Assembly: GCA_002424305.1 (NCBI GenBank)
Contig: DIQZ01000051.1
Location: 3,497-67,496, forward strand
Direction of reading: 5' to 3'
DNA: 64,000 nucleotides
From: Firmicutes bacterium UBA5449
GTDB taxonomy: Bacteria > Bacillota > SHA-98 > UBA4971
In this document: positions 1-62,200 of the stretch, in pieces
How positions within the stretch are numbered: the first letter of the stretch is position 1
Layout of the letters: every line of letters starts with the position of its first letter
Translations under genes and position numbers: made by a program
Notes under the pieces: model-generated
Databases searched by the model: none
Told to the model about the DNA's origin: nothing
Seen by the model: the letters and a program-made list of their open reading frames with translations, nothing else

Positions 1-416
1 CCGCCCGTCATCCCCTGCTTTTCCCCGATATAACCTGCACCAACCATGTGACCTGCTTGTCCTCGGACTCGTATCAAGCCTCCTGACATACCTGCGCCGG
101 GGAAACCTCCGACGTCTCCGTCCACTCGGATCTCTCCACCGGTCATACCTGCACCAAGGTGCATTCCCGCCGGGCCGGCAACAGTAAGAAGGCCTGAAGC
201 CATGTTATGTCCAAGGTATTTCACCTTGGACAGGTTCCCTTCAACATGTATATGCAGTTCAGCTCCGGAGCCGCTGACTTTCACATCAAAGAAATCATCT
301 ATTTGCATCGTTTCATTACCGTATAACAGGGGTAGCTCTTGAATTTCCTTCTCCGATTTGCCCAGCAAGACAGCAGGGCTAATGCTCTCAGCTTCAAGAG
401 GGACTTGTGGTAACAC
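1..416 (-). CDS. fwdC: Formylmethanofuran dehydrogenase subunit C, N-terminal part (3' end of the gene lies beyond the window start)
   Basis: The reverse-complement of 1..416 translates in one open frame. A GTG start at 416..414 lies a few nt after the fwdA stop. The product begins MLPQVPLEAESISPAVLLGKSEKEIQELPLLYGNETMQIDDFFDVKVSG. It continues with glycine-rich repeats (GPAGMHLGAGMTGGEIRVDGDVGGFPGAGMSGGLIRVRGQAGHMVGAGYIGE) typical of the FwdC/GltB-C beta-helix. The six-frame track does not list it because it is truncated by the window edge. Confidence 0.75.
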   Translation of the reverse strand, partial: MLPQVPLEAESISPAVLLGKSEKEIQELPLLYGNETMQIDDFFDVKVSGSGAELHIHVEGNLSKVKYLGHNMASGLLTVAGPAGMHLGAGMTGGEIRVDGDVGGFPGAGMSGGLIRVRGQAGHMVGAGYIGEKQGMTG

Positions 417-418
417 TT

Positions 419-2053
419 TTAGTCCGAAATATACGGTGGGCATGGAACCACCTCACAAGGCATAAACTTATCTCTTGCTACAGGGTAATTTTCCAAAGCA
501 ATACTATAGAACTGACTGAACTTAGGCTTGAGCCACTCAATAATATCTTCATCTTCCTCTAGATCCGCGACATACGTCTTGCCGACTGTCTCAGACAGTA
601 TTTCTCCTTCTCTTACTACAACCTCTCCGCCTTTTAGGACATAGACAGCTTCTCGAAACATTGCCTCATAATCACTGTTCGGCCTGTAAACGGCGATATC
701 TGCGTCAGCTCCAATCCCAAGATGTCCCTTGTTTGCAAGGCCCAACGTTTTTGCAGGTCCTGCCCGGGTGATTATTGCGATCTCTTCCAGCGTATATTCC
801 CTGGTAAGCTCCGGAAGCTCGCTGGAGCCAAGCGCCCTCTTGCTTACTGTTTGTGCTGTTTCTTCCCGGTAATCACGATCCATAAGAAGCTTGATGACCC
901 ATGGATATGAAGTGAACGGCCCACCGTTGGGGTGATCCGTTGTAAGAGAGATCTGCCACGGATTTTCCACCGTCAAGAACAACTCCAGCCCGGCAATCCA
1001 CTGTATAGCACCGGCATAAGTCCTCTTTCTGTAGTTGAGAGGCACAATACCTGACTGGGTTTCCATCTCTACCTCTTTACTTACCCATCGCTCCTTTGTT
1101 AACCTGTGCAAACTGTGTTGAAGAGGAGCGTCTGCAGTCATGGTGACTGCAGGACCAAACACAACTTGGCCCACATCCATGGTGATATTGGGGTTGGCAT
1201 TGACATACTCTGCCAACTTCCTGGCAGAAGACGCGAAAGGCCTTCCCTTTTTAGGGCCATATGCACCAAACTGCATGTGTGTAATATGGAGCCGTCTGCC
1301 TTCAGCCAATGCCATGGTTTCCAGGGTCGTCTCTCCGCTGGTGGGTTGTCCCAGGTTATTGCAGTGAAGGTGTAGAGGATGAGGCAATCCTAAGGCTTCA
1401 TTGACGTCAATCAGGGCATCAATGATCTCGCGGGGAGTAACTCCATACCCAACCGCTTCATCGTCGAGGCTGTTGACATTGCCACGTTTTCTCCAGTTCG
1501 CGCCTCCCCCCGGATTAACCGCTTTGATCCCGTATCCACCGGATGCCCTAATGAGGAAGGCAACATAGTCCCTAAGTCTCTCGAACTCACCATCCCGAAT
1601 GAGGCTTAAGACAAAGTGATTGCTACCCATCAGAACCAACATACCTTTATCGACAATGGGGATATCAGCCAGTTCCTCGTGGACATGACGCGCTTCAAGA
1701 GGAGGAGCTGCCGCTTCTGTAACATACGTGTAACCCATCCGGGCATATCGATGGCCTGTTATGAATGTGGACGGAACTACATGGCCTACGCCGCTCCTGG
1801 TAGTCGCAGTGCGCGGTACAGGGTCAGTACGGTGATCCTCGGGACAAAGCACACGGCCTACATTGACCTTGGGACCTGCGATATGCGAATGTATATCAAC
1901 TCCACCCGGCATCACTATAAGGCCCTTAGCGTCTATTACGCGGGCTCCCGAAGACGAGGGTACTATTTTGCCGTCTGAGACGTAAATATCCCCTACCTCT
2001 CCGGCTTTGCCGTTCAATGGGTCATAGATAGAGCCACCTTGTATGCAAAGCAC
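419..2053 (-). CDS. fwdA: Formylmethanofuran dehydrogenase subunit A (amidohydrolase-fold)
   Basis: 544 aa. N-terminus MLCIQGGSIYDPLNGKAGEVGDIYVSDGKIV...MPGGVDIHSHIAG is the FwdA/FhcA amidohydrolase signature, with an HxH metal site. It lies in operon context with fwdB, fwdD, ftr and fwdC. Confidence 0.8.
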   Translation of the reverse strand: MLCIQGGSIYDPLNGKAGEVGDIYVSDGKIVPSSSGARVIDAKGLIVMPGGVDIHSHIAGPKVNVGRVLCPEDHRTDPVPRTATTRSGVGHVVPSTFITGHRYARMGYTYVTEAAAPPLEARHVHEELADIPIVDKGMLVLMGSNHFVLSLIRDGEFERLRDYVAFLIRASGGYGIKAVNPGGGANWRKRGNVNSLDDEAVGYGVTPREIIDALIDVNEALGLPHPLHLHCNNLGQPTSGETTLETMALAEGRRLHITHMQFGAYGPKKGRPFASSARKLAEYVNANPNITMDVGQVVFGPAVTMTADAPLQHSLHRLTKERWVSKEVEMETQSGIVPLNYRKRTYAGAIQWIAGLELFLTVENPWQISLTTDHPNGGPFTSYPWVIKLLMDRDYREETAQTVSKRALGSSELPELTREYTLEEIAIITRAGPAKTLGLANKGHLGIGADADIAVYRPNSDYEAMFREAVYVLKGGEVVVREGEILSETVGKTYVADLEEDEDIIEWLKPKFSQFYSIALENYPVARDKFMPCEVVPCPPYISD

Positions 2054-3315
2054 TCTACCACCCCCTTGTCAATGGCAAGCAGAATATCGCAATCAGTGGG
2101 ATACTTTGAGTCAATCACTTTCTTTAGAGGCAGAGGAACCTGGTCCATCCTGTATGCGGTTCCGGAAGCTGCCACCCCAATAGGCGCCGAGGGCAGGAAT
2201 ACTCGAGCAAACTTTGCTGTAGCTGAGTAGTTGGGATCTATGACTATCGTCGGTATCTTACCTAGATATTCACCTGCACGGGCAGGCAGAGTCGCCGCAG
2301 GGTCTGACGCTACAACCAACGCTGCGTCTACTTCCTCACGACAGAGAAGGTCCGTCACTGTGAACTCACCCGGACCATACCTTGGATATCCACGGCTGAA
2401 GTTGATACCAAATGGATAGCCGGTCTGCCAAGTCAGGACTGTCTCAGCTCCTGCCACATTCCCGTGACCACGCATAGGTATAACAGTGAACGCTGTCTTC
2501 TCATTTAGGTCATGCACAAGGGACAGAGCTTGTTGTACGTTGTAATGGGTCCCACGAGTCATGGTAAGTCCCATTCCGAAAAAGAACACCCCGTATTCAG
2601 CATCTTGGAGCACGCTTGAGGTATTTAGAATCTCGTCCCGACTGATCCCTCCAAAAGTATCTCCTCTGAGTTCATTGCCGGAAAGGACAGCTCTTAGTGC
2701 TGTCAAGACTTGAAAATCTCCGTTTGGTTCCACTTGCAAAAAGATGTCTGCAGCTTTTGCAGTAGCAGTTCTCCTCACATCTGCAACAATTATCCTGCGG
2801 TCACGTCTACCCCCTTCTGTGTTGAGTCCCTTTGCTTGAACTGAATAGCGACTGAAATGCCTGGGATGAGCTTCTACCGGGTTACAGCCCCAGAAGACTA
2901 CCACATCCGCCCTGTTCTTGACTTCACCAAGTGTACATGTGGATAAACCTACAAGCTGTTTTGCCACTGTGCCCGGGCCATGGCATACTGAGGATGTAGA
3001 ATCAATGCTTGCCCCAAGAGTCTCCCCGAGCTTGACAGCAGCAGCTTGAGCTTCACTGCCTGCGCTGGACAACCCATATATAAGTGGATGTCTGGCTTTC
3101 GCCAGTATCTCAACGGCAGCGTCCAGAGCTTCGGAGAAATCCACCTCTTTCCCGTCAACAAGTGGCACTTCATTATCTATCGGGCTCAAGAACTTGCTTC
3201 GGGAAATAGCGCAGCCTCCCCTCACCTTGGAGATTGTGTTTCCCTCAATCTCCAGCACAATGTCGTCGCAAAGGGAACCACAAAAAGAACAGACAATATT
3301 TTCAAGTCTTCTCAT
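2014..3315 (-). CDS. fwdB: Formylmethanofuran dehydrogenase subunit B (molybdopterin/tungstopterin oxidoreductase fold)
   Basis: 433 aa. An N-terminal Cys cluster (CSFCGSLCDD...GGC) is consistent with a [4Fe-4S] site. An SSVCHGPG motif is consistent with a Cys metal ligand (a Cys codon, not Sec). Size and fold are typical of FwdB. It overlaps the fwdA start by 40 nt. Confidence 0.8.
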   Translation of the reverse strand: MRRLENIVCSFCGSLCDDIVLEIEGNTISKVRGGCAISRSKFLSPIDNEVPLVDGKEVDFSEALDAAVEILAKARHPLIYGLSSAGSEAQAAAVKLGETLGASIDSTSSVCHGPGTVAKQLVGLSTCTLGEVKNRADVVVFWGCNPVEAHPRHFSRYSVQAKGLNTEGGRRDRRIIVADVRRTATAKAADIFLQVEPNGDFQVLTALRAVLSGNELRGDTFGGISRDEILNTSSVLQDAEYGVFFFGMGLTMTRGTHYNVQQALSLVHDLNEKTAFTVIPMRGHGNVAGAETVLTWQTGYPFGINFSRGYPRYGPGEFTVTDLLCREEVDAALVVASDPAATLPARAGEYLGKIPTIVIDPNYSATAKFARVFLPSAPIGVAASGTAYRMDQVPLPLKKVIDSKYPTDCDILLAIDKGVVECFAYKVALSMTH

Positions 3316-3666
3316 CTATGTCTTGCGCCTCCTGACCTTACATGGGATGCCCTTAAATCCGGGCATACCACTTCCTTCAGTTGCGTCCCGTGTTAGTCTA
3401 TTTGCGGGAGGACCGTACGGTATAAAGATAATACCTTCCGGCAGATCTCCTTTGCGACATAAGAATCGACCGACACCAAAGTCTGTAGATATCTCAACAG
3501 AGTCTCCATGTTTGAGGCCAAGCATCTCCATGGTGGATGAACTTAACTCAACCAGACTCGTCTCCTTCTTATACACGTCAGAATCCTTACCGTCTGCGAC
3601 ACCGACTCCCTGCCTCAAGGTTCGACCTGTGATAAGAATGGCGTGGATTTCCGGAATAAAGGCCAC
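3316..3666 (-). CDS. fwdD: Formylmethanofuran dehydrogenase subunit D (molybdopterin dinucleotide-binding domain)
   Basis: 116 aa small subunit located directly upstream of fwdB; its stop abuts the fwdB start. The sequence (ILITGRTLRQGVGV...GIIFIPYGPPANRL) matches the molydop_binding/FwdD small-subunit pattern. Confidence 0.7.
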   Translation of the reverse strand: MAFIPEIHAILITGRTLRQGVGVADGKDSDVYKKETSLVELSSSTMEMLGLKHGDSVEISTDFGVGRFLCRKGDLPEGIIFIPYGPPANRLTRDATEGSGMPGFKGIPCKVRRRKT

Positions 3667-3772
3667 CTCCTACCCTGATGCCTCTCTGATACCCTTCTAT
3701 GATGCTAATACCTTCAAGCAATCCTTGATAAAAAGTTGCAGGCGCTTTCGGCGCCTGCAACTTTAGCAGATC

Positions 3773-4666
3773 TTACTTCAACACGTCATATAGGCGAATA
3801 TGGTGTTTCCCGAGCTTATCTCCGTAATTACCGGCTGTAATCTCTACAATCCCAGGGATACAAGCTGCTCTTATTCCAAGCTTCATAGCTTCTTTGACTG
3901 ATTCCATATTCAGGCCGTTTATTACGATTTCATATACGCATGTAACACCGGGTGGGACTAAAGTGTCCTCAACCTTGTCACGAACAGTGGGACAGAATCT
4001 TTGATTGCTTGAAGCAGGAAGGAAGTCGTAATTCACCCCACCAATCTTACTACCGGAGCGGACTACTCCCTTTGGAAACGGAAGAAGCACGCCTGGCACC
4101 TTCCCGGCAGCTTCCACAGCTTTGACAGCAGCCTCAAGACACGCCTTCCTGTCCTTACCGAGTATGATGAAATTGCCTCCGCCGATCCCTTCAGCTACCC
4201 CATAAGTGCCTTCGATGATGAATTCTCCGTCCATCATAGGCACATGCCAGTAAGTAGCTCCATTCTTTTCCTCGCTGTACTCATAGCCATCACCGAAGTA
4301 ACGCAACATTTCACCTGTTTCAACCTTGTTTTCACTCTTAAGGCCATTGAATGCGGATGTAGTGGCACAAGTCAATACACACATCCCGACACGTCCAAAG
4401 AGCTGGTCATGGAGTTTCTCCTTATCCAGGGCAAAGATTAGTATGGACACACCGGGCCTTCCGTCCGGGGTGTCTTTGACCTCCCCTTCAATGCCTGCTT
4501 CTCCCCCACAACCAATGATTGAAGTGCCCATTCCTACAGCTTCTCTTGCAGCTTCCATCGCCCAGTCCATAGTATCGGCGGTCACAATCACTCGTGTCCC
4601 AAGAAAATCAAAAGCCTCTGCATACGTGTCCTTGATGGGAACGCCATTGATAATCAACAAGATCAC
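3773..4666 (-). CDS. ftr: Formylmethanofuran:tetrahydromethanopterin N-formyltransferase
   Basis: 297 aa, the expected size for Ftr/FhcD. The N-terminus MILLIINGVPIKDTYAEAFDF and overall composition match Ftr. It is the first biosynthetic-pathway gene upstream of fwdDBAC in the same operon. Confidence 0.8.
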   Translation of the reverse strand: MILLIINGVPIKDTYAEAFDFLGTRVIVTADTMDWAMEAAREAVGMGTSIIGCGGEAGIEGEVKDTPDGRPGVSILIFALDKEKLHDQLFGRVGMCVLTCATTSAFNGLKSENKVETGEMLRYFGDGYEYSEEKNGATYWHVPMMDGEFIIEGTYGVAEGIGGGNFIILGKDRKACLEAAVKAVEAAGKVPGVLLPFPKGVVRSGSKIGGVNYDFLPASSNQRFCPTVRDKVEDTLVPPGVTCVYEIVINGLNMESVKEAMKLGIRAACIPGIVEITAGNYGDKLGKHHIRLYDVLK

Positions 4667-4735
4667 TCCTTATAATGATTTATGATTCATAGGACTCTCG
4701 TTACCTTATGTGGCACATCCTGATAATCGATGACA

Positions 4736-5923
4736 TCATCCGGTTCGGCGCACATTTGCAAGCACCCAAGCTTGCTGCTTTTCAAGGGCGGCAAGACACC
4801 CATCCCGTGACTTGGCTTTCGCAAATACCGTGCATAACGGCGTCTCAGCCGGAATTTCCTCACCAGGCTGTGGAATATCACGAATTCCCCTGTCGAACCA
4901 CGCATTGGTGTCGACTGTCACCAGATCCCACGGAGCATAAACGATTGTCTTACCCCAGCATGAACCTGAATAACCCGGGTTCTCTTCAAAAAGTGAATGC
5001 CTATTCGGCAACCTATTTTGAAAGGCTTCCACGTGTAGCCCGAAAATATCAAGTCCGTATGCCTTTCGATAAAGCTCCATGGAGGAAGAATAGCGTGGGT
5101 TTACCTCTAGAAACAACACATTTCCTTCATCCGTGACAAGAAAGTCTATGCCATTTACGCCTATGAGACCGCATTTCGCAGTGATAACATTGACCATTCT
5201 TCTGACTTTTGCCAGCACCTGCTCTCTTACTGAGCTGGAACTGTTACAGTGTGAAAAGGTCAGTGGCACAATATTCCCGCAGTAGAGAAAAGGTTTGGCT
5301 GCAAACTTTTCCAATCCGCAAAGCTGTTCACTTAACCCGAGTATCACAGCATCTGTTCCATTTGCGACAAAAGACACTGACGCCGGTGTAGCTTGACAGA
5401 ACTCCTGTAACATGTACCCGTCAGGTACAGGGATATCGGGCAAAGCCCGGACTATCCTATTGCCACCGCCTGAGTCATGGGGTTTGCACAACCAATCACC
5501 CGGCGGAGGCGAACCCCTCCAAACGTGCAAGGTTTTTGGATAATTGATGTCTACCTTCTGTAACAGGTGATGTAGCCGTTGAAAATCCCTGGCTGCCATG
5601 ACTGTCTGGGCAGAGTTCCCCAAGAGCTTCTTGTGCTCTGCAAGATGTCTTATGATCTCCGGGTGGTTTTCCACACTCGACGTATAAGCAACAGCTTCAT
5701 GGCTGACCCCGGTCGCCTCGAGCTTGTGCAGCGCTTCAATAACTATCTCAGGACTGAAACTTGAGGTCAGGAAGTCACGTCTTAGCGAGTAACTCCTGCC
5801 CCATCTCTTCTGATCCATATCGCCGAAATAGTCCAACGTAGTAATGGAATATCCGGCATTACGGCTTAATGCAGCGCATTCTGCCAAGCCTCGAGTGCTA
5901 AAACCCAGTATCAGCAGGTTCAC
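4736..5923 (-). CDS. ATP-grasp domain ligase, probably cofactor (H4MPT or methanofuran) biosynthesis
   Basis: 395 aa. An EVNPRYSSS motif and overall architecture indicate the ATP-grasp fold. It is the first gene of the ftr-fwd operon, with AGGAGG 7 nt upstream of the ATG. Comparable ATP-grasp genes accompany H4MPT-pathway clusters. Confidence 0.55.
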   Translation of the reverse strand: MNLLILGFSTRGLAECAALSRNAGYSITTLDYFGDMDQKRWGRSYSLRRDFLTSSFSPEIVIEALHKLEATGVSHEAVAYTSSVENHPEIIRHLAEHKKLLGNSAQTVMAARDFQRLHHLLQKVDINYPKTLHVWRGSPPPGDWLCKPHDSGGGNRIVRALPDIPVPDGYMLQEFCQATPASVSFVANGTDAVILGLSEQLCGLEKFAAKPFLYCGNIVPLTFSHCNSSSSVREQVLAKVRRMVNVITAKCGLIGVNGIDFLVTDEGNVLFLEVNPRYSSSMELYRKAYGLDIFGLHVEAFQNRLPNRHSLFEENPGYSGSCWGKTIVYAPWDLVTVDTNAWFDRGIRDIPQPGEEIPAETPLCTVFAKAKSRDGCLAALEKQQAWVLANVRRTG

Positions 5924-5960
5924 ATTGCATTTCCTCCTTGTATTCCCCTATTGTCATTAT

Positions 5961-5979
5961 GATGCAAGTTTCGTGCCTG
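5961..5979 (-). promoter_or_regulatory. Sigma-54 (-24/-12) promoter for the ATP-grasp/ftr/fwd operon
   Basis: The minus strand reads CAGGCACGAAACTTGCATC. This is GGCACG-N4-TTGCA with the canonical GG-N10-GC spacing. The predicted transcription start lies about 30 nt upstream of the ATP-grasp ATG. A sigma-54 enhancer-binding protein gene lies immediately upstream. Confidence 0.55.
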
Positions 5980-6050
5980 GAGATTGTAGATGCGTGAGAT
6001 TTCAGATTAGGCCAGCTAGAGTCGTTTCTCCTTGATCATAACGGGAAACA

Positions 6051-6065
6051 CTGAACCACATTCAG
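6051..6065. promoter_or_regulatory. Inverted repeat CTGAA-N5-TTCAG, candidate enhancer (UAS) site
   Basis: Seen directly in the sequence, about 75-90 bp upstream of the sigma-54 promoter. Confidence 0.25.
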
Positions 6066-6179
6066 CAGGAAGATTCGTGGGACTGTATCGATTTGAAACG
6101 CTCTTGCTTTCAAGCCCGGGAATGCATTTTCCATATCAAAACAGGGATTTAGTGGGAAACTATAACTGTTATTGAGCAG

Positions 6180-6198
6180 ATGTCCCAACCTGGGACAT
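6180..6198. promoter_or_regulatory. Perfect palindrome ATGTCCCA-N3-TGGGACAT, candidate enhancer (UAS) site
   Basis: An 8-3-8 perfect inverted repeat lies about 200 bp upstream of the sigma-54 promoter, between the EBP gene stop and the promoter. Confidence 0.35.
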
Positions 6199-6232
6199 GT
6201 ATCATAGTGCTACGATTATCATAACTTTGACT

Positions 6233-8173
6233 CTAGAAGTTCTCTTCGCGCAAGGACGCAAGGTCAATACTGTACTTCTCCAGTTTCCTGTATAGAGTCG
6301 TTCTGCCTACCCCCAACTGCTTGGCAGCAGCGCTCATGTTACCCCCATACAAGGCAAGAGCATTTAAGATCGCATCCCTCTCAACCTCATCGAGGCTTCG
6401 TGGATACGCGTTCAAGGGACGTGTATCCACAGGGAGAATATGCCCATCGGCCCCTGGATCCGATTGCCTTGCGATTCGAGTAGGAAGGTGCTTGAGGCTC
6501 AGAACGCTTCCTTCTAATAGATGATTCGCTTGCTCCATAACATTTTCCAGTTCTCTGACATTACCCGGCCAACTGTATTTCATAAGCACCGCTTCAACTT
6601 CAGGAGTCATTTCTATTGAATCAAGACCGCGTTGCTTTGCGAAGCGTTGAAGGAAACACGTAGCCAGAATCAAGATATCTTCGCCTCTGTCGCGAAGAGG
6701 AGGTATAACCACGTTCACAACGCTGAGACGATAATAAAGGTCCAACCTGAAATGGCCTTCTTTGACTAAACGTGCAATATCCTTGTTCGTTGCAGCAATT
6801 ACCCGTATCTGAACGGGAATAGGCGTATGTCCGCCAATCCTGACTACTTGTTTGTCTTGTAACACCCTCAACAGGCTACTCTGAGTCTCTAAGGGAATAT
6901 CACCTATTTCATCCAAGAACAGTGTGCCCCCGCTGGCAAGTTCGAACTTTCCCGGCCTCCCGCCCCTCCTTGCCCCGGTGAAAGCACCTTCCTCATATCC
7001 GAAAAGTTCACTTTCAACTAAGTCTCTGGGCAACGCTGCGCTGTTTACAGCCACGAACGGGCCGTTCCTGCGCGGACTGGCATTATGGATAGCCTGAGCA
7101 AAAAGCTCTTTACCTGTCCCGCTTTCACCTACCAGAAGGACTGTGGAGTCTGATCTGGCAACCCGGCGGGCCATGTCAATTTTTTCAAGGAATTTCGGAT
7201 CTTCCCCGATAAGGTCGGAAAACGTAAACCTGGCCTGTGCTCCTACCATTCGTGTAACAAGGCGCTGCACTGACTTCATCTCTCTAAATGTTAGAACAAT
7301 CCCGAAAACCCGGCCTTGTTGAGAGCAAATTGCCCTACTGGTAACAGTCACATGCACCCTGCGATTATTCAAGGTCACAGCAAGTTCCCGGTCATTGAAA
7401 CCTTCTCTACCGGTCTTAATAGCCTGTAGCAGAGGAAGTGATTCCCGAAATATCTCATCTGCTCGCTGGCCAATGCAAGCCATAGGCTTGAGCCCGAAAA
7501 TCCTTCCTGCTACGTGATTCATGTGAGTAATAATACCATCATTGTTTATGGCGACCAGTCCGTCTGACATAGCTTGAACTACTGAATAAAGCTGCTCAGT
7601 TGTGCGTTCTAACTCGAGTTGATTTTCGATGGCTGCTGCGGCTGCCGCAACCATGCCAAGAGTATGGGGATGAGAGGCGTCTTTGGAGCCGACAACCCCA
7701 AGAATACCGAAAAAAGCCCCCTCAGGACTTGAGATAGGGGCTGCAGCTCCGGCTAAATCATGATATGCCTTCAGGTAGTGTTCATCACCTATGACCTGAC
7801 AAGGCTTTCTCTCACTAAGCACAAGGCTGATGGCATTGGTGCCATGCTGTTCTTCACTCCATAAAGTCCCTACTTCAAGAGGTACACAAGAAAGTTGTGA
7901 GAGCCTGGACTCCCCGGTGACTGAAATCAAATAACCTTCAGAATCACCTAAGAATACCTGCCGATTAGCTGACACAAAAGAAGCGATTCTTTCCATAAAA
8001 GGGTGGGCTACTCTCGCCATTGAAAGAGAAGGTTTTAGATGACTTTCCAACTCCTTACCGACAAGCTTCACTGAAGTAGGCTCCTGATCTGAATTCATAC
8101 CTCGATTGCAACAGCGATCCCAGGATGCTGCAACTATTGAATTCATGGTATTCTTTCGTGTAACCCTGTCCAT
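6233..8173 (-). CDS. Sigma-54-dependent transcriptional activator (GAF/PAS sensor, AAA+ domain, Fis-type HTH)
   Basis: 646 aa. It has a GESGTGKE Walker A, a GAFTGA-like region (EEGAFTGAR), and a C-terminal HTH (AAAKQLGVGRTTLYRKL). The N-terminal part is sensor-like, with an HMNHVAGRIFG PAS-type segment. Confidence 0.85.
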   Translation of the reverse strand: MDRVTRKNTMNSIVAASWDRCCNRGMNSDQEPTSVKLVGKELESHLKPSLSMARVAHPFMERIASFVSANRQVFLGDSEGYLISVTGESRLSQLSCVPLEVGTLWSEEQHGTNAISLVLSERKPCQVIGDEHYLKAYHDLAGAAAPISSPEGAFFGILGVVGSKDASHPHTLGMVAAAAAAIENQLELERTTEQLYSVVQAMSDGLVAINNDGIITHMNHVAGRIFGLKPMACIGQRADEIFRESLPLLQAIKTGREGFNDRELAVTLNNRRVHVTVTSRAICSQQGRVFGIVLTFREMKSVQRLVTRMVGAQARFTFSDLIGEDPKFLEKIDMARRVARSDSTVLLVGESGTGKELFAQAIHNASPRRNGPFVAVNSAALPRDLVESELFGYEEGAFTGARRGGRPGKFELASGGTLFLDEIGDIPLETQSSLLRVLQDKQVVRIGGHTPIPVQIRVIAATNKDIARLVKEGHFRLDLYYRLSVVNVVIPPLRDRGEDILILATCFLQRFAKQRGLDSIEMTPEVEAVLMKYSWPGNVRELENVMEQANHLLEGSVLSLKHLPTRIARQSDPGADGHILPVDTRPLNAYPRSLDEVERDAILNALALYGGNMSAAAKQLGVGRTTLYRKLEKYSIDLASLREENF

Positions 8174-8178
8174 TTTCC

Positions 8179-9183
8179 TCAGTCTTCCCCTTCCGACTCT
8201 ACGCAGACTCCTTGATTACATGCCCTGAGACAACGAACTTGAGCTCGAGCACCTGACTCCTCCAGGTACTTATGAAGATGTGCTTCGATGTTCCAGGCGG
8301 CTTTCTCCCCTTCCACTATCCCATAGACCGTTGGCCCCCACGAACTCTGCCCTGCTCCGGTAGCACCGGAATTCAGAAGCAGTCGAACGATTCCCTCTGC
8401 GGACGGATGACTGTACAATCCCCCTTGCACAGAGGCGAATTGCTTGCCGATAGTCCACTGGATCTCTGTCAACGCTTGCCCAAAAGATTCAACGTTCTTC
8501 TCCAGAAGCGCCGGGAGGAGCTGCATGACAAGAAGTCTGCAAATCAGCCCCACGTCCTCAGGAGGTATGGGAGGTAAAATCTCTAAAGATATGTTTTTCC
8601 GTTTTGCCCTAAATTCAGTGGCGGTTTCGGGTGTGACAACAATGAAGTACCAATCCTCAGGAAACGGATGTCTGAATATGATGGGAGGTGTGCAGAACTC
8701 AGCGTCAGGCCTGTCAAATGTTCTCGGTATTCCGCTGGCAACGACAAAGCCCCCGTATTTGAAGATTCCTAAACATGCGTCGGTCCTATACCCTCGTAAG
8801 GCGATATCGGCTATATCTTCAATCGTATAGTCAATACTGTAAAGGCTTGCGAGAGCTGTTCCCACCGCCAGTCTCAGTTGGACGGATGAGCCGAGGCCGA
8901 CGTGAACCGGAATCGCCTCGTCAATCTGTAGCCGCGCTCCACCTCTTATACCGATCCTTATGAGAAAATCTCGGGCAATAGCCTTGACTCTCCTGCTATC
9001 ATAGCCTTGGACAGTTAATTCATCGGCCTCTTCAGCCAATATGACAATCTTCGGACCTTTAAGGGCCACCCCTATACCCCCATACATGCGCCCCAGAGAA
9101 CCATTGAGGTCAAGCTGTCCTAAGTGCAAGCGGGATGGGGATTCGACCCTTAACATCCAAGTCACCAGCCTTCCATAGTGCAA
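8179..9183 (-). CDS. mptG: GHMP-kinase-family protein, probable beta-ribofuranosylaminobenzene 5'-phosphate synthase (H4MPT biosynthesis)
   Basis: 334 aa. It has an N-terminal SRLHLGQLDLNGSLGR motif and the GHMP motif VGLGSSVQLRLAVGTALA. Size and motifs match the beta-RFAP synthase family. It is co-directional with the EBP and the ftr/fwd operon. Confidence 0.55.
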   Translation of the reverse strand: MHYGRLVTWMLRVESPSRLHLGQLDLNGSLGRMYGGIGVALKGPKIVILAEEADELTVQGYDSRRVKAIARDFLIRIGIRGGARLQIDEAIPVHVGLGSSVQLRLAVGTALASLYSIDYTIEDIADIALRGYRTDACLGIFKYGGFVVASGIPRTFDRPDAEFCTPPIIFRHPFPEDWYFIVVTPETATEFRAKRKNISLEILPPIPPEDVGLICRLLVMQLLPALLEKNVESFGQALTEIQWTIGKQFASVQGGLYSHPSAEGIVRLLLNSGATGAGQSSWGPTVYGIVEGEKAAWNIEAHLHKYLEESGARAQVRCLRACNQGVCVESEGED

Positions 9184-9377
9184 AACTGACGCCTTACATC
9201 TATCCTATAACTCTGACATCAAGGCATGACACGATCAACCTAATTCTTACATAATCGGCATAGGTTGTAAAGCTTCAGGGAAACACGATGTTCTCATGCT
9301 TGACGTAAAAAAACTTGTGTGCTATTCTGTAGATACGCTAATTATGTAGTTTGAACCAAATAATTGTTTGTTCATGT

Positions 9378-9454
9378 GGTAGATGTAGCTCAATGGTGAG
9401 AGCGCTGGACTGTGGCTCCAGAGGTTGCGGGTTCGAGCCCCGTCATCTACCCCA
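9378..9454 (+). tRNA. tRNA-His (anticodon GTG) with encoded G-1
   Basis: Manual fold: an 8-bp acceptor stem including a G-1:C73 pair (GGTAGATG/CATCTACC), a D-stem GCTC/GAGC, an anticodon stem CTGGA/TCCAG with loop CTGTGGC (anticodon GTG), and a T-arm GCGGG-TTCGAGC-CCCGT. The 3' CCA is encoded. Confidence 0.85.
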
Positions 9455-9510
9455 TTTTTATGCCAATATGGAACAGCAAGCAAACACATCACGCTTCAAA
9501 TAATCCTCAA

Positions 9511-10881
9511 TCAATGCGCCTCAGGAACCTTTTCTGTAGATCTGAAGAAACAATAGAACATTGAAGTGCTTATCAAGTAACAAACTGCAGTCATTGAAAA
9601 TGCCAGAGGAAAACCACCCTTGACCTGCAGAATACCGCTGATCAACGGTGCAAGCCCACCCCTGACCAAGCTGTCAAGTACCCCCCTGACACTGTGCAAA
9701 GTCGCACGTTGCTCTTCCCTCACCTGTTCAAGGAAGAAGGTTGTCTCCACAGGCCCACACATGTTCATAAAGGCGTGACGGAAGTAGTATGAGGCCACAA
9801 CTGCCGGGAGATTCAACGAATGAGCAAGGGTAAGAAGGAACGGTATGGACGCAAGTCGAGTGACTGCTATTAGCTTCACTTTTCCAAACCTCTTAGCTAA
9901 GAGAGGCGCAGCTAACGTCACAACGCCGCTGACAATTCCTGAAAACGCGAAAATAGCGCCGATAGGTGCAGTGGACAGATTGAATCTCAAACTAAAGAAT
10001 AACTGAAAAAACGGAACCATTGCGCCTGCACCCAAAGCAGTCACTATGGTCGGCAAAAGGACCTTTGCAAAGACAAAGATATCTTCCTTATCCTGGGGCA
10101 ACGCCATGATAAGAGACGAATACGAAGCCTGCCTCGATGCACCTCTACGCTCCTCCTTCAACAGAGTGAGCGGAACTATCGATATTACAATGAATAATAC
10201 AGACATGAAAAGAGCGACTCGAAGAGGCAAGATATCTTTAGGCGACACGGACACAATCCTACCGACAACTTGTGGAACCAGGCCTCCCATGATGCTCCCC
10301 AAGAAAGCAGAACCCATTTGCAGAGCAGAGTTTACTGAAAAGAGAAAGACCCTGTCATTGTCGTCGCTGTAGCGCATCAGGAGCGGAACTCCCACAGCCC
10401 AAATAAAAGTAGCGCCTATCCCGTCAAGAAGACGAAAGATCAAAAGCAACATCTTGGAATTCACTAACGGGATTCCAAGGAGTCCGACAATACTTAAGAT
10501 TCTACCGATAATAGCAGGCTTCTTGTACCCTGCTCGGTTTACGGCAAAAGACGCAGGTAGCGCAAACAACAGCATCGCGAGAGAAGGTATTCCGTTCAAA
10601 TATCCAATAAAGTCCTGATGATACCCTAATTCATAGACGTAGAGATTGAAAGCCACCTGAAAAATGGAACGGGCAATGGCTGCCGTAAAGCCACATAAGA
10701 GATAGTGCTTAGCATTGGGGTGAAATTCCCTGACCCCTCTGAGATACCTATGCACCAGAGATTCGCTACGTAAGATTGCTTCATGAGATACAGGTTTACC
10801 TTTCATATCAAATGAGTATTCTACTTTTAAGCTGGGTTTCCCTTCAGATCCCCCATTCTGAACATAATCCTGCCAATCCAA
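9511..10881 (-). CDS. MFS-type transporter (multi-pass membrane protein)
   Basis: 456 aa, highly hydrophobic with about 12 predicted transmembrane segments. The architecture is typical of MFS transporters. Confidence 0.55.
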   Translation of the reverse strand: MDWQDYVQNGGSEGKPSLKVEYSFDMKGKPVSHEAILRSESLVHRYLRGVREFHPNAKHYLLCGFTAAIARSIFQVAFNLYVYELGYHQDFIGYLNGIPSLAMLLFALPASFAVNRAGYKKPAIIGRILSIVGLLGIPLVNSKMLLLIFRLLDGIGATFIWAVGVPLLMRYSDDNDRVFLFSVNSALQMGSAFLGSIMGGLVPQVVGRIVSVSPKDILPLRVALFMSVLFIVISIVPLTLLKEERRGASRQASYSSLIMALPQDKEDIFVFAKVLLPTIVTALGAGAMVPFFQLFFSLRFNLSTAPIGAIFAFSGIVSGVVTLAAPLLAKRFGKVKLIAVTRLASIPFLLTLAHSLNLPAVVASYYFRHAFMNMCGPVETTFFLEQVREEQRATLHSVRGVLDSLVRGGLAPLISGILQVKGGFPLAFSMTAVCYLISTSMFYCFFRSTEKVPEAH

Positions 10882-12495: not shown

Positions 12496-13881
12496 TCATA
12501 TATGTATCGACTTTCCGTGCACAGCCTCAGCCGCCTCAACCAGTGCTTCTGCAAGCGTAGGATGGGCGTGTATTGTATTTGTGAACTCACGTACTGTCAT
12601 CTGAGTTCGAACTGCAGCTGTAGGCTCGGGAATAAGCTCAGTTACGCTTGGCCCCACCATATGAACACCAAGTATTACATCACTGCTTGCATCAGCGATG
12701 ACCTTGACAAAGCCATCAGTTTGGCCCATAGCCAAAGCCTTACCGCTTGCCATGAAAGGGAACTTACCAATCTTCACCTCAAGACCCTGTTCTTTGGCCT
12801 GACCTTCATTTAGCCCGACACCGGCTACCTCAGGCCTGGTAAATATGGCACTGGGAACAGCACTATAATCCATACAGCGCTTGTCGCCTGCAATATTATG
12901 GGCAGCCACAATCCCTTCTGCAGACGCGACATGCGCAAGCATAATATTGCCTACTGCATCACCGATAGCATATATGTTAGGGATATTTGTGACCATTTCC
13001 TCATTAACCACTATCTCGCCGCGCTCATTGACCTCAACCCCCAACTCTTCCAAGCCAATTCCTTCGGAGTTGGCTCTTCGGCCAACAGATAGGAGGGCTT
13101 TCTTTGCAACAAGCTGTTCGCCTGAGTCAAGAATAGCCGTAATCTCTCTGTTATTCTCTTCAATTCTCTCGATTTTCACACCGCATTTGACGTTAACCCC
13201 ATGCTTTCTAAGGGAAGCTTGAATTGTTTTTGAGATATCCGGGTCTTCCATAGGAAGCACAGTGGGCATAATATCCACAACCGTCACCTTGCTGCCAAGG
13301 CAAGTAAAGATGAAAGCTAACTCACATCCGATAACACCACCACCAACAACAAGAAGACTTTCAGGCACTTCCTCTAAATCCAAGGCTTCACTGCTGGTAA
13401 TAACAGTATCCCCGTTGTAACCGAATGCCGGAAATACCAGTGGCCTTGAACCGGTGGCAATGATTATGTTCTCGGCCCTTATATCATCAAAGCCTTCTTC
13501 TAAGTCTACCGTGATTCTCCCCGGAGCCACAAGCCTGCCTGTTCCTTTCACAACCTTAATTTTGCCTCTCTTGAGGAGAAATTTCACACCTGCTCTCAGA
13601 CGGGAGACTATCTTGTTCTTCCGTGCGATCATCTTAGCAAAATTCGCAGATACATGAGGAGCTTCTACCCCAAACTCCTCCAAACGTTGTGCCAGCATAA
13701 ATGCTTCCATGCCGGCAACCAGAGACTTAGTGGGGATACAGCCTCTGTTTAGGCATGTCCCACCAAGTAGGTCTTTCTCAACAAGGCACACACTCTTTCC
13801 TAGTTGAGCAGCTCTAATAGCAGCAACGTATCCTCCCGGCCCTCCTCCAAGCACTGCAACGTCAAACTCAAACACAAACAT
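12496..13881 (-). CDS. lpdA: Dihydrolipoyl dehydrogenase
   Basis: 461 aa. It has the FAD motif GGGPGGYVAAIRAAQLG, a redox-active disulfide region GGTCLNRGCIPTK, and a C-terminal HAHPTLAE dimerization motif. Confidence 0.9.
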   Translation of the reverse strand: MFVFEFDVAVLGGGPGGYVAAIRAAQLGKSVCLVEKDLLGGTCLNRGCIPTKSLVAGMEAFMLAQRLEEFGVEAPHVSANFAKMIARKNKIVSRLRAGVKFLLKRGKIKVVKGTGRLVAPGRITVDLEEGFDDIRAENIIIATGSRPLVFPAFGYNGDTVITSSEALDLEEVPESLLVVGGGVIGCELAFIFTCLGSKVTVVDIMPTVLPMEDPDISKTIQASLRKHGVNVKCGVKIERIEENNREITAILDSGEQLVAKKALLSVGRRANSEGIGLEELGVEVNERGEIVVNEEMVTNIPNIYAIGDAVGNIMLAHVASAEGIVAAHNIAGDKRCMDYSAVPSAIFTRPEVAGVGLNEGQAKEQGLEVKIGKFPFMASGKALAMGQTDGFVKVIADASSDVILGVHMVGPSVTELIPEPTAAVRTQMTVREFTNTIHAHPTLAEALVEAAEAVHGKSIHI

Positions 13882-17078: not shown

Positions 17079-18454
17079 TAATCCCTACTCAGCTCTTCCC
17101 TTACAACTTTTACGACCTCAGATACAGCAGTTCTTACCATCGCTTCATCCGCACCCTCGCCTAAAACACGAATCAAAGGCTCTGTCCCTGAAGGACGCAC
17201 AAATATCCGCCCCTCTTCGCCTACCAAAGCATTAGCCCGCTCAATAGCTCGACCTACTCTCGAGTTGGAGAAGAAGCTTTCCTTGTTACTGACCTCAACA
17301 TTGACAAGAGTCTGCGGGTAGACTTCCATCCATGAGGCTAGCTCCGATAGTCTCTGACCTGTTGTACGAAGGACCGATAGAAGGGCGAGAGCGGTGATTA
17401 TTCCATCCCCTGTTGTATTACGGTCAAGAAAGATTATGTGTCCTGACTGTTCTCCGCCTAGGACGACACCGAGCTTCCTCATTTCTTCCAGGACATATCT
17501 GTCGCCATTTTGAGTAATAACTACATTACCGCCTTCACGCTTGAAGGTCTTGACCAACCCCAAATTACTGTATACGGTAGCGACTATGGTCTTCTTTGGA
17601 AGCTTCCCCTTTCGCAGAAGATCCAGACCGCAAATAGCCATAATATGGTCACCGTTAACCACATGTCCCCTCTCATCAACTGCTATCAACCTGTCAGCGT
17701 CACCGTCGTGAGCAAGACCCAAATCCGCTCCTGTCCGGACAACCAGCTCACCTATGACTTGAGGATGAATGGATCCGCACTTGAGATTGATATTAGTTCC
17801 GTCAGGCTTATCATTTACCGTTATTACATGAGCTCCAAGATCCTCCAACAGCCTCGGCGTGTATGATGAAGCTGCGCCATTTGCGCAGTCCACAACTACT
17901 TTCAGACCTTCCAGACTAACATTCACTGTACTCTTGGCATACCTCATATATCTCTCCCCGGCATTTTGAAGCCTGCAAATCTTTCCGACTCCGCCTCCTG
18001 CCGGCCTTGGAAAATCGTCATAAACACCAAAACGGACGATTCCTTGCTCATCGAAGGAGATATATTCCTCAATTTCCTGCTCTTCTTCATCTGAAAGCTT
18101 AAACCCGTCACCGGAAACAAACTTAATACCGTTATATTCCATGGGATTATGGGATGCTGAGATAATGATGCCTGCATCCGCCGGGAGATCCCTCACAAGG
18201 AATGCCACCCCGGGGGTGGGAATGACACCGATTGTCACCGCTTGTCCCCCAACTGATGCTATCCCTGAAGCTACCGCAGCTTCCAGCATATCCCCGGAGA
18301 GTCTCGTATCACAACCTACAATAATCGTAGGCTGCCTCCTTAGTCTCCTTGCGATAATTCCGGTTCCAACTCGACCTAATGTAAATGCCAGCTCAGGCGA
18401 GAGAAATGTATTGGCAATCCCTCGTACCCCATCAGTTCCAAACAGTCTCGCCAT
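17078..18454 (-). CDS. glmM: Phosphoglucosamine mutase
   Basis: 458 aa. It has the active-site motif ISASHNPMEYNGIKF, and an N-terminus MARLFGTDGVRG typical of GlmM. Confidence 0.9.
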   Translation of the reverse strand: MARLFGTDGVRGIANTFLSPELAFTLGRVGTGIIARRLRRQPTIIVGCDTRLSGDMLEAAVASGIASVGGQAVTIGVIPTPGVAFLVRDLPADAGIIISASHNPMEYNGIKFVSGDGFKLSDEEEQEIEEYISFDEQGIVRFGVYDDFPRPAGGGVGKICRLQNAGERYMRYAKSTVNVSLEGLKVVVDCANGAASSYTPRLLEDLGAHVITVNDKPDGTNINLKCGSIHPQVIGELVVRTGADLGLAHDGDADRLIAVDERGHVVNGDHIMAICGLDLLRKGKLPKKTIVATVYSNLGLVKTFKREGGNVVITQNGDRYVLEEMRKLGVVLGGEQSGHIIFLDRNTTGDGIITALALLSVLRTTGQRLSELASWMEVYPQTLVNVEVSNKESFFSNSRVGRAIERANALVGEEGRIFVRPSGTEPLIRVLGEGADEAMVRTAVSEVVKVVREELSRD

Positions 18455-18500
18455 ATCCTGTTCCTCCTGATCAATATAACATTCGCATGAAACAATGGAT

Positions 18501-19271
18501 CTATTCAGGTAATGGTGCTACTTTATCAACCTGCTCAATTGACTCTGTAGATGCCTCGTCGGCTATCTCTTCGTCAGATTGCGTGGTTGGTATTTCACTT
18601 ATAGGCACAAATACGCGAACAGTTTGCGGATGAGCACTCAAATCCTGGACAAGGTTGCCTCCGGTGTCTACCGGACTCACCTTTACACTCCTTGAGATAG
18701 CGGACGTAATACCGGATACGTCAATGTAAGCCACGACCGTGTCTATCAACTCCACCTGGCTCCTTGGTCCGATAACGGTAACCAAACCAGGAGATGCTTC
18801 GGGCTGGAACGGAACTTTGCTGTCTCCCGGATATCCTATTATCCCTACCTGGACCGGGAAGTCTACACTGACAATGGCATCCATCTTCACGCCTACCGAC
18901 GCCGGGATAATCTCGACCACTTGGACACCTTCAGGAGCTGATACCTGAACCCGTGCGGCATACTCCCCTTCACCTCGTCCGGCTACAGATACGAATGCTT
19001 GAACTTTCGAGCCATCAAGCGGTTCTACCAGATACTTCGGACCGCGCACCCGAACCTCCACGTCTCTTGGCCTGGTCTCAACTGCGAAGTCGGACGGCGC
19101 GCCTGAGACGTCAACGCCTGCTGTAACAAACCTCTCGGCGGTATCAACCTGGTTTTTGTTGATCTCTGCGCCCGCCACGAACCAAATAACAATCGCCAGA
19201 AGAACGGCTGCTATTTTAAGATATATTTCTCGAGGGACACGGAACGTCACATTACATGCCCCCTTAACCAA
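18501..19271 (-). CDS. cdaR: YbbR-domain protein (CdaR-like regulator of diadenylate cyclase)
   Basis: 256 aa with an N-terminal transmembrane segment and repeated YbbR-like beta-rich segments. It sits in the conserved cdaA-cdaR-glmM position. Confidence 0.65.
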   Translation of the reverse strand: MVKGACNVTFRVPREIYLKIAAVLLAIVIWFVAGAEINKNQVDTAERFVTAGVDVSGAPSDFAVETRPRDVEVRVRGPKYLVEPLDGSKVQAFVSVAGRGEGEYAARVQVSAPEGVQVVEIIPASVGVKMDAIVSVDFPVQVGIIGYPGDSKVPFQPEASPGLVTVIGPRSQVELIDTVVAYIDVSGITSAISRSVKVSPVDTGGNLVQDLSAHPQTVRVFVPISEIPTTQSDEEIADEASTESIEQVDKVAPLPE

Positions 19272-20098
19272 GCCGGAATACCCTGACGGAGCTTACTTGC
19301 GTGCAGTAGTTCTATCAATCTCTCCTTCAGAGCGCTTTCATCAAGATAACGCATTAACTTCCCGTTGCTTGCTATCGAGATGACTCCCGTCTCTTCTGAG
19401 GCCACTATACACACAGCGTCAGATTGCTCCGACAAGCCTAACGCTGCGCGGTGTCTGGTTCCAAGTGTCTTACTGATATTCGGATTCTCAGATAGGGGAA
19501 GGTAGCAGCCTGCAGCCATTATTCTGCTGCCTCGGATTATGGTGGCACCATCATGCAGTGGTGAATTAGGCATGAATATGTTAATAAGGAGCTCTGTTGA
19601 AACAACAGCGTCGATTTTGGTGCCTGTCTCCATCAACTCCGCAATACCGCTGTCACGTTCAACAACAATAAGAGCCCCGATTTTGTCTCTGGCCATCACC
19701 GTTGCAGCTCTGGTAATATCAGAAACCAAAATCATTGTGTCCTCTTTCTCCAGCAGTCCTAATGGACCTGTAAATATGCCACCACGACCTATTTGCTCCA
19801 GAGCTCTTCTGAGTTCAGGCAAGAATACTATGGGCAGACCGACAAAAAGCACAGTAATCGTCTTCTGTAGAAGCCAATTTACTGTGCGCAGTTTAAGCAA
19901 ATCACTGACCATAGTGGCAATAAAGATAACTGCAATGCCCTTGAGAAGTGACACTGCTCTTGTTCCCCTAATGATAACCAGGAGTTTATAGATAACATAA
20001 GCAACAATAAGAATATCCACCATGGAGCGGATTGCATTTGTCGCGTTTACTTTAGCCAAGCTTTCCGTAAGCCTTGCTATGGTTAAATCAAACGGCAT
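19247..20098 (-). CDS. cdaA: Diadenylate cyclase (c-di-AMP synthase), membrane-anchored
   Basis: 283 aa. It has N-terminal transmembrane helices and a DAC domain with DGATIIRG...RHRAALGLSE motifs. Confidence 0.85.
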   Translation of the reverse strand: MPFDLTIARLTESLAKVNATNAIRSMVDILIVAYVIYKLLVIIRGTRAVSLLKGIAVIFIATMVSDLLKLRTVNWLLQKTITVLFVGLPIVFLPELRRALEQIGRGGIFTGPLGLLEKEDTMILVSDITRAATVMARDKIGALIVVERDSGIAELMETGTKIDAVVSTELLINIFMPNSPLHDGATIIRGSRIMAAGCYLPLSENPNISKTLGTRHRAALGLSEQSDAVCIVASEETGVISIASNGKLMRYLDESALKERLIELLHASKLRQGIPAWLRGHVM

Positions 20099-20224
20099 GT
20101 GTCTCCCCCTTGGATCCCTCCGAACGCAGCCTCTACCACAAATATATACTATACATTAATGGAATCCGATGCAAGGCTGTTAACTCATTATTATAGAGAT
20201 AGACGTTAGCTTTGCCGAAAAACC

Positions 20225-62156: not shown

Positions 62157-62200
62157 ATAAACGCTACAGTCCCTCTTCTGTTGGGTTTGTAGCGTTTATT
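62157..62200. terminator. Inverted repeat between the convergent ackA and MinD-ferredoxin genes (possible bidirectional terminator)
   Basis: AATAAACGCTACA-N18-TGTAGCGTTTATT forms 13-bp perfect arms. It is AT-rich and has a long loop, so it is not a textbook terminator. Confidence 0.3.

Follow-up and report, generated by a model that had tools for sequence, protein, structure and literature searches.

A probable sigma-54-regulated operon for a predicted redox-type formylmethanofuran dehydrogenase in an uncultured Bacillota lineage of anaerobic digesters

The first 9183 nucleotides (positions 1-9183) of a 64,000-nt stretch of contig DIQZ01000051.1 from Firmicutes bacterium UBA5449, the whole of which we call the window, carry on the minus strand the genes for a formylmethanofuran dehydrogenase (Fwd) and a formylmethanofuran:tetrahydromethanopterin (H4MPT) formyltransferase (Ftr). 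This region is likely to make up the upstream two-thirds of an operon of 13 kb under sigma-54 control, in an uncultured Bacillota lineage of anaerobic digesters. Judged from the encoded proteins, the operon probably specifies a redox-competent, cysteine-type FwdABCD with a Mo/W bis-pterin site and without FwdF/G, together with Ftr, cofactor ligases, a CitG-like protein, a protein of the beta-ribofuranosylaminobenzene 5'-phosphate (beta-RFAP) synthase family, MobA and FdhD. Open reading frame (ORF) calls combined with Pfam/NCBIfam profiles recovered all eight genes that a preliminary description had listed, in the order given there: mptG-like, sigma-54 activator, ATP-grasp ligase, ftr, fwdD, fwdB, fwdA and fwdC. 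Beyond the left window edge, a longer copy of the contig (L001) continues from fwdC into genes for a RimK-type ligase, a CitG-like protein, MobA and FdhD.

The class of the enzyme is read chiefly from its catalytic subunit. FwdB (433 amino acids (aa), 3315..2014, minus strand as for all features of the module) passes TIGR03129 with 522 bits (cutoff 327.8) and scores 433 bits to M. wolfei FwdB (5t5i_B) versus 61 bits to M. extorquens FhcB (6s6y_B). Its C111, H112 and R282 align with Cys118, His119 and Arg288 of M. wolfei FwdB, and the cysteines of the N-terminal [4Fe-4S] cluster are present as C9, C12, C16 and C35 (CxxCxxxC...C). Directly upstream, fwdD (3666..3316, 116 aa) encodes the molybdopterin-dinucleotide-binding 'fourth domain' subunit (PF01568 Molydop_binding, 51.9 bits), which scores 77.6 bits to A. 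fulgidus FwdD-2, 72.8 bits to M. wolfei FwdD (5t5i_D) and 84 bits, under the cutoff of 175, to the curated model NF042908. FhcB lacks Cys118 (which is Ser instead), His119, Arg288 and the N-terminal [4Fe-4S] domain, and the Fhc complex lacks FwdD (PMC6926001). Because the FwdB residues, the iron-sulfur cysteines and FwdD, exactly the features lost in Fhc, are all kept, and because mobA and fdhD are co-located, we assign the enzyme on sequence grounds to the redox-type Fwd and not to the Fhc-type hydrolases. The preliminary description had proposed a true redox Fwd, with placement among the methylotroph Fhc proteins as the outcome that would speak against it; FwdB proved not to be of the alphaproteobacterial FhcB type.

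The remaining subunits are also recognizable. FwdA, the amidohydrolase subunit (2053..419, 544 aa), passes TIGR03121 with 721 bits (cutoff 392.75) and scores 528 bits to 8rja_A, 511 to M. wolfei FwdA and 414 to FhcA; its metal-ligand motifs are intact (HSH 55-57, GIK 175-177, HLH 228-230, HITH 256-259 and TTDH 371-374), and the binuclear-metal set of HxH, carboxylated Lys 177, two His and Asp 373 is found by motif. The beta-helix (GXGXG) subunit FwdC is cut by the window edge, which leaves its N-terminal 147 codons (443..1; TIGR03122, 148 bits, cutoff 130.65), with an ATG at 443 that overlaps the fwdA stop; the full-length protein on L001 has 272 aa and scores 248.5 bits with TIGR03122. Ftr (4666..3773, 297 aa) passes NF002554 with 397 bits (cutoff 297), contains both lobes (PF01913, 180.6 bits; PF02741, 195.7 bits) and scores 315 bits to A. 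fulgidus Ftr and 277 bits to FhcD. Its Glu246 aligns with Glu245, the catalytic residue of M. kandleri Ftr.

A dedicated sigma-54 regulator, as claimed in the preliminary description, is borne out by an activator gene within the module and a conserved -24/-12 promoter. The promoter, AGGCACGAAACTTGCA (5978..5963), is the single best match in the 64 kb and the only one with one mismatch to TGGCACG-N4-TTGCW; the box ends 40 nt upstream of the start of the ATP-grasp_3 ligase gene (5923..4736, 395 aa; PF02655, 69.9 bits), the first gene of the sigma-54 operon, and comparable boxes precede the first structural gene in four related lineages (L087, L090/L009, L091 and L095). The activator (8173..6233, 646 aa) has a GAF-PAS-AAA+-HTH architecture (PF00158, 230 bits, with HTH_8, PAS and GAF), with Walker A at residue 349 and GAFTGA at residue 396, and its orthologs flank the fwd clusters of L087 (81% identity), L090 (63%) and L091 (71%, the C-terminal 374 aa lying in the locus). 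Just downstream of the activator gene is a palindrome read from the sequence, ATGTCCCA-GGT-TGGGACAT (6198..6180), kept as ATGTCCCA-N3-TGGGACAT in L087 and L090, which is a candidate activator binding site or, alternatively, may form a hairpin in the transcript. The best family matches of the activator are of the DhaR and PrdR types, and its relatives carry the MimR_N domain; the AcoR/MimR/DhaR group senses small carbonyl compounds, and it is a reasonable guess, and only that, that the signal here could be aldehyde-like. Scans of positions 1-9600 for sigma-70 promoters and terminators returned counts at chance level.

Enzymes of this type are widespread. When one genome per GTDB species was scanned by pattern, redox-type fwdB relatives turned up in at least 591 species genomes; the best 80 include, among bacteria, Bacillota, Hakubella (Actinomycetota), Anaerolineae and other Chloroflexota, Desulfobacterota, Synergistota, Methylomirabilota (NC10), Gammaproteobacteria, Planctomycetota, Gemmatimonadota and Acidobacteriota, and among archaea Hadarchaeia, Bathyarchaeia, Asgard lineages and others. 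The view in the preliminary description that such genes are normally those of methanogens, anaerobic methanotrophic archaea, methylotrophic Proteobacteria, Planctomycetes and NC10 is outdated, given these at least 591 species genomes and the Firmicutes with fwdD that were already on record: Chistoserdova (2016) names Firmicutes, Synergistetes, Chloroflexi, Actinobacteria and Deltaproteobacteria among the carriers, with a fwdD homolog kept in Archaea, Synergistetes, Firmicutes and NC10 and a role in organisms other than methanogens and methylotrophs that is called 'enigmatic' (PMC5020050). Merino et al. (2020) described fwdDBA-ftr-fwdC with Cys118 and the iron-sulfur domain in Hakuba actinobacteria (PMC7325909). 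Nor is a gene order that includes fwdD a peculiarity, as had been supposed, since the common bacterial layout is fwdD-fwdB-fwdA(-x)-ftr-fwdC, after which mch, a RimK-type ligase gene and a CitG-like gene usually come. Bacterial operons of this sort are common and have been reported before; the locus adds another example of a kind that is not new.

The residues on which the assignment turns are conserved throughout this set. The catalytic position is kept in 86/86 loci (six of them from the window's own species), as Cys in 80 and as an in-frame TGA in 6, and the four cluster cysteines, the His and the Arg are kept in all 56 of the 56 aligned FwdB homologs. The TGA-type genes (SL*HGP; L027, L030, L039, L058, L059 and L078), which occur in Caldilineaceae, another Chloroflexi metagenome-assembled genome (MAG), Acidobacteriota and Planctomycetaceae, presumably encode putative selenocysteine-type bacterial FwdB; five of these six loci have fwdD-fwdB-fwdC with no neighbouring fwdA. 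Neighbour-joining trees, built from Kimura-corrected p-distances on a limited sample, group the window's FwdB with those of two congeners (bootstrap 100), two further digester lineages (100) and Clostridiales bacterium PH28_bin88 (90), and nest this Bacillota clade within a bacterial clade (97), apart from the archaeal sequences. Identity of the module proteins to their archaeal counterparts is roughly 53-55%, much the same as to many bacterial homologs.

What is particular to the lineage is the combination of a sigma-54 promoter and activator, an ftr upstream of fwdD, a cluster without mch or the canonical ftr, and the appended mobA and fdhD. In PH28_bin88 (L089), genes for an AfpA-like protein, a pterin-binding DUF6513 protein, a DUF447 protein, an Mpt_N dehydrogenase and the ATP-grasp ligase precede fwdDBA, and ftr, fwdC, mch, RimK, CitG and mfnB follow; in a digester lineage (L091) the corresponding series are activator, DUF2193, Mpt_N and ATP-grasp before fwdDBA, and ftr, fwdC, mch, RimK, CitG, mptA, DUF1464, folB and HPPK after it. 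A protein of about 500 aa is encoded directly upstream of the Mpt_N dehydrogenase gene in the fwd clusters of both L091 (1422-2903, DUF2193, Bacillota) and Acetomicrobium (L021, 1498-3033, Synergistota), and could be a so far overlooked part of the H4MPT-linked pathway in bacteria. The 65% clade (L090) has mptG, activator, ATP-grasp, ftr1, fwdDBA, ftr2, fwdC, mch, RimK, CitG and fdhD, with mobA about 1 kb further, and the window lineage has mptG, activator, ATP-grasp, ftr1, fwdDBA, fwdC, RimK, CitG, mobA and fdhD; the canonical ftr2 (between fwdA and fwdC) and mch are missing from its cluster, and the gene junctions overlap. The Ftr of the window is orthologous to the upstream Ftr1 of L090 (71% identity), not to the canonical Ftr2 (43%). 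L090 itself holds both genes in one operon (8567-9532 and 12909-13862), the divergent copy, 43-45% identical to the window Ftr, lying between fwdA and fwdC, and this two-ftr state looks like an intermediate that preceded loss of the second copy in the window lineage.

An archaeal origin of the upstream Ftr appeared in a first neighbour-joining tree, where it grouped with the Ftr of A. fulgidus and Methanosarcinales at 84% bootstrap; the grouping vanished after M. kandleri, M. barkeri and FhcD were added and the sequences realigned, leaving deep nodes below 35%. Either duplication or acquisition may have given rise to this copy. Searches by tblastn for Mch, Mtd, AfpA, PterinBD, DUF447, MfnB, DUF2193 and MptA found no match in the window, its extensions or the sister-species loci. 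Searched against 5.8 billion proteins, the L090 Mch matched its own clade at 75-93% identity and next, at 46% and 41%, proteins encoded after fwdC in other lineages; the candidates P0151, P0150 and P0152 were rejected, their genes lying directly after fwdC in contexts that belong to other lineages.

The genes for cofactor synthesis are assigned with less precision. The MptG-like GHMP protein (9183..8179, 334 aa) passes the family model TIGR00144 with 195 bits (cutoff 113.5), falls below the cutoff of the equivalog NF040726 (207 bits versus 328) and scores 69 bits to the solved beta-RFAP synthase 8aoz. The ATP-grasp_3 ligase, with a weak 28 bits to the MfnD model, is a probable cofactor-tail ligase of the MfnD/MyfA-like kind, and about 18 of 80 loci, from Desulfobacterota, Synergistota, Chloroflexota and Bacillota, have its ortholog next to fwdD on the upstream side, as do L089 and L091. 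The RimK-type ligase, which lies outside the window on L001, passes TIGR00768 and scores 274 bits to the MptN model NF040720 (cutoff 350), and its sequence does not separate MptN from MyfB. MyfB and MyfA of methylotrophs correspond to the MptN-like Orf5 and the MfnD-like OrfY, respectively (PMC8141765). The two ATP-grasp ligases, weakly assigned as they are, may build the glutamyl tail of a cofactor of the methanofuran/methylofuran type. Of the H4MPT-biosynthesis genes that the preliminary description saw next to the operon, the mptG-like gene holds as a family match; the ATP-grasp ligases are as likely to serve a methanofuran or methylofuran glutamyl tail (MyfA/MyfB-like, PMC8141765) as the synthesis of H4MPT. 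At the operon end, mobA (molybdenum cofactor guanylyltransferase) and fdhD (sulfurtransferase) both encode proteins that mature enzymes with Mo/W bis-pyranopterin guanine dinucleotide, and their presence there is the sole and indirect support for the predicted binding of this cofactor by FwdB.

The contig belongs to a bacterial host. It is not archaeal and not a chimera, the two concerns that the preliminary description had raised beside its reading of a bacterial backbone. The remainder of the window holds cdaA-ybbR-glmM, an arrangement typical of Firmicutes, together with alr and genes for PBP1A, UvrABC, a PcsB-like M23 peptidase and SecA; the flanks are typical Bacillota housekeeping genes. 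SecA is 66-88% identical to that of uncultured Bacillota MAGs, followed by Moorella, Thermanaeromonas, Pelotomaculum, Desulfofundulus and Limnochordales at about 64-66%. The G+C content is uniform (0.49-0.51 in the module versus about 0.48 elsewhere). An identical FwdB occurs on contigs of GCA_002398585.1 (192 kb) and GCA_002426925.1 (140 kb), in several ENA assemblies and in one JGI metagenome, and at least six assemblies from NCBI, ENA and JGI share the gene order and both junctions, on contigs of up to 192 kb; a sister species with an 84% identical FwdB (GCA_900198705.1 and a 514-kb ENA contig) has the same 12-gene module. Against this sister species, the ratio of nonsynonymous to synonymous substitution rates (dN/dS) is 0.04-0.27 across all 12 genes and lowest for ftr (0.037), rough values with dS near saturation; the 12 module genes are under purifying selection and are not decaying. 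A literature search by accession on GCA_002398585, GCA_002426925, GCA_900198705, DGZV01, DIOK01, FZPS01, ERZ724043, AS23ysBPME_252 and THP_Bin_8 found nothing.

By homology with M. wolfei (PMC6926001, PMC11656701), FwdB/D would interconvert CO2 and formate at the metallopterin site. Since the operon has neither FwdF/G nor a ferredoxin gene, the cluster of FwdB presumably contacts soluble ferredoxin directly, with electrons passing via the single N-terminal [4Fe-4S] cluster and probably straight to or from that carrier. Formate would pass to FwdA, which would condense it with methanofuran, or hydrolyse the product, at the binuclear metal site, and Ftr would exchange the formyl group with H4MPT. 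Transcription would proceed from the -24/-12 promoter upstream of the ATP-grasp gene, with the adjacent GAF-PAS activator responding to a small molecule. As to direction, the clusters of relatives contain Mpt_N, Mch and pterin biosynthesis genes and none shows Mer; Mpt_N (PF09176) is the family to which the NAD(P)-linked MtdA/MtdB of methylotrophs belong. Because these clusters pair the enzyme with an Mpt_N dehydrogenase and Mch and have no Mer, we lean slightly towards oxidation of formaldehyde-level C1 units to CO2 as the physiological direction; CO2 reduction is a distinctly weaker possibility, and a somewhat smaller share of our judgement is left undecided between them. The window alone cannot decide between the two routes offered in the preliminary description, Wood-Ljungdahl-like or C1-oxidizing, and it is the gene content of the relatives that tips the balance towards the latter.

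Several other explanations of the locus can be weighed against a redox-competent, sigma-54-controlled Fwd-Ftr operon. It seems doubtful that the enzyme reduces CO2 at the entry to a Wood-Ljungdahl methyl branch of the H4MPT type, serving acetogenesis or, run in reverse, syntrophic acetate oxidation: the enzyme is reversible in archaea, the habitat is a digester and, judged by SecA, the closest relatives in culture (Moorella, Thermanaeromonas and Pelotomaculum, at about 65%) include acetogens and syntrophs, but no mer, F420-type mtd or CODH/ACS is encoded in the window or in the cluster of any relative examined, and the relatives' dehydrogenase, where present, belongs to Pfam Mpt_N (PF09176), the MtdA/MtdB family. 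We regard as unlikely the idea that the Fwd-Ftr pair works without Mch as a self-contained, ferredoxin-linked CO2/formyl-pterin module, and this judgement extends to its variants: that the relocated Ftr might pass the formyl group to another acceptor such as a folate-type pterin, which if true would give an ATP-independent alternative to formate dehydrogenase plus formyl-tetrahydrofolate synthetase; that the cofactors might be salvaged from neighbouring methanogens; or that these bacterial operons may be a 'missing link' between archaeal Fwd and Fhc, redox-active and with a bound Ftr and a tethered polyglutamylated methanofuran. A truncated remnant, in which the pathway was broken by the loss of mch and the canonical ftr and the module is decaying or merely tolerated, would fit the change from fwdA-ftr-fwdC-mch in sister clades to fwdA-fwdC-rimK here, with clean overlapping junctions, and the failure to assign an Mch to the lineage among the best 120 matches. 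We nevertheless find it improbable, as at least two species have every one of the 12 ORFs intact, with the dN/dS values given above, the promoter and activator are conserved, and the mptG-like gene is retained under selection, which implies that the remaining steps of cofactor biosynthesis are encoded elsewhere in the genome; mch could equally be there.

A non-redox formyltransferase/hydrolase complex like FhcABCD, with FwdB/D a mere scaffold and free formate as product, would account for the presence of ftr and fwdABC in one operon, which fhc clusters also show, and for the adjoining RimK-type ligase related to MptN/MyfB (PMC8141765); it is nonetheless very improbable, given a FwdB that keeps the Cys/His/Arg set and the [4Fe-4S] domain that FhcB lost (PMC6926001) and reaches only 61 bits to FhcB, a FwdD that is missing in Fhc but present and conserved here, and the co-located mobA and fdhD. 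To an assembly or binning artefact that placed an archaeal fragment on a bacterial contig, or to a very recent transfer from a methanogen, we give almost no credence: the host does live among methanogens in digesters, and its proteins are about as similar to archaeal as to many bacterial homologs, but the order and both junctions recur across the NCBI, ENA and JGI assemblies, the G+C content is uniform, the module contains a bacterial-type sigma-54 activator and promoter, FwdB falls within the Bacillota clade of the bacterial radiation, and the module is kept in the sister species.

Some observations weigh against the redox-operon reading as a whole. No FwdF/FwdG polyferredoxin subunit is encoded in the operon or its 10-kb extension, no ferredoxin or other electron-transfer gene is found in the operon, and fwdE is not among the cluster genes, although the FwdF/G pair is not universal among archaeal isoenzymes. 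Sequence does not distinguish W from Mo as the metal. Genes for Mch, Mtd and most of cofactor biosynthesis are not in the window, the 10-kb extension, L001-L006 or the sister-species locus, and no Mch assignable to the window lineage is among the best 120 matches of the 5.8-billion-protein search, which suggests that mch may be absent from this organism. Set beside its nearest relatives, the module is not the 'complete-looking' one of the preliminary description, which is too strong a phrase for an operon without fwdE/F/G and a cluster without mch, mtd and further H4MPT and methanofuran biosynthesis genes. The trees that place FwdB are, as noted, neighbour-joining trees on a limited sample. 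Finally, a 2024 review adds to the first M. wolfei structure three more homologous systems with solved structures, of which the sole bacterial one is the non-redox Fhc, so that no bacterial redox-type Fwd is among the four (PMC11656701).

The surroundings of the operon contain further genes. A tRNA-His(GTG) gene (9379-9454, plus strand) and a major facilitator superfamily (MFS) transporter gene (9511-10881, minus strand) border the module; their position is kept in the sister species (MFS 80% identical), though genes further out differ. The transporter was considered as a part of the module and left out of the system, as neither it nor the tRNA gene is adjacent to the fwd clusters of other clades. 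A gene at 44845-46863 (minus strand), with cell-envelope and housekeeping genes around it, encodes a protein of 672 aa whose whole length matches DUF5693 (534 bits). Cys motifs of the ferredoxin type occur in the window only in genes at 58800-59795, 62196-63104 and 63101-63970 (all minus strand), more than 50 kb from the fwd operon: the first encodes an aldo/keto reductase fused to a 4Fe-4S dicluster domain, the other two are adjacent ORFs of about 300 aa, and no sign links the Fer4-motif genes of the 58.8-64 kb region to the operon. Beyond the left window edge, downstream of fdhD, L001 carries at 17377-20758 three paralogous ORFs of about 355 aa without Pfam or NCBIfam match, which are kept in the sister species (L088). 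These were rejected as electron carriers, having no iron-sulfur motifs; with an N-terminal membrane or signal segment and HExxH, they look like a family of secreted metallopeptidases.

Formylmethanofuran dehydrogenase needs no ATP to capture CO2 as a formyl group. The redox-active examples studied biochemically or structurally are all archaeal, and the sole bacterial relative with a structure is Fhc (PMC11656701, PMC6926001); that bacteria outside the methylotrophs carry Fwd genes has been known from genomics for a decade. The locus offers a compact, well-delimited example in an abundant digester organism, with a sigma-54 switch as a handle for finding the inducing substrate, and, as a natural variant without mch in the cluster, it makes the destination of the formyl group directly testable.

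Among known systems, the tungsten FwdABCDFG of M. wolfeii (5T5I) shares with the operon all of FwdA, B, C and D, with catalytic and iron-sulfur residues and metal ligands kept, and differs in that here FwdF/G and fwdE are missing, ftr is in the operon, the host is bacterial, control is by sigma-54 and FwdB belongs to a bacterial clade. FhcABCD of Methylorubrum extorquens (6S6Y) likewise comes from a bacterial host, has Ftr encoded with the A, B and C subunits, and has an MptN/MyfB-like RimK ligase and another ATP-grasp ligase nearby, whereas the catalytic Cys/His/Arg, the iron-sulfur domain and FwdD, which it lacks (PMC6926001), are all present here. The fwdDBAC of Methanosarcina acetivorans, as described in PMC7325909, has the same D-B-A-C order and no polyferredoxin subunit; it is archaeal, unlinked to ftr and has a proposed role in carboxydotrophic growth. 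Also comparable are the fwdDBA-ftr-fwdC clusters of other non-methylotrophic bacteria (Hakubella (PMC7325909), PH28_bin88, Acetomicrobium, Desulfobacterota and Anaerolineae), which share the four Fwd subunits with their redox residues, in most cases an ATP-grasp gene that lies upstream of fwdD (not adjacent to fwdD in Hakubella and the Anaerolineae locus), RimK-type and mostly CitG-like genes downstream and, in the Bacillota clade, the sigma-54 activator. Unlike them, the operon described here has its ftr upstream of fwdD, no ftr between fwdA and fwdC, no mch after fwdC and no mtd or pterin biosynthesis genes in the cluster, and it has mobA and fdhD appended at its end.

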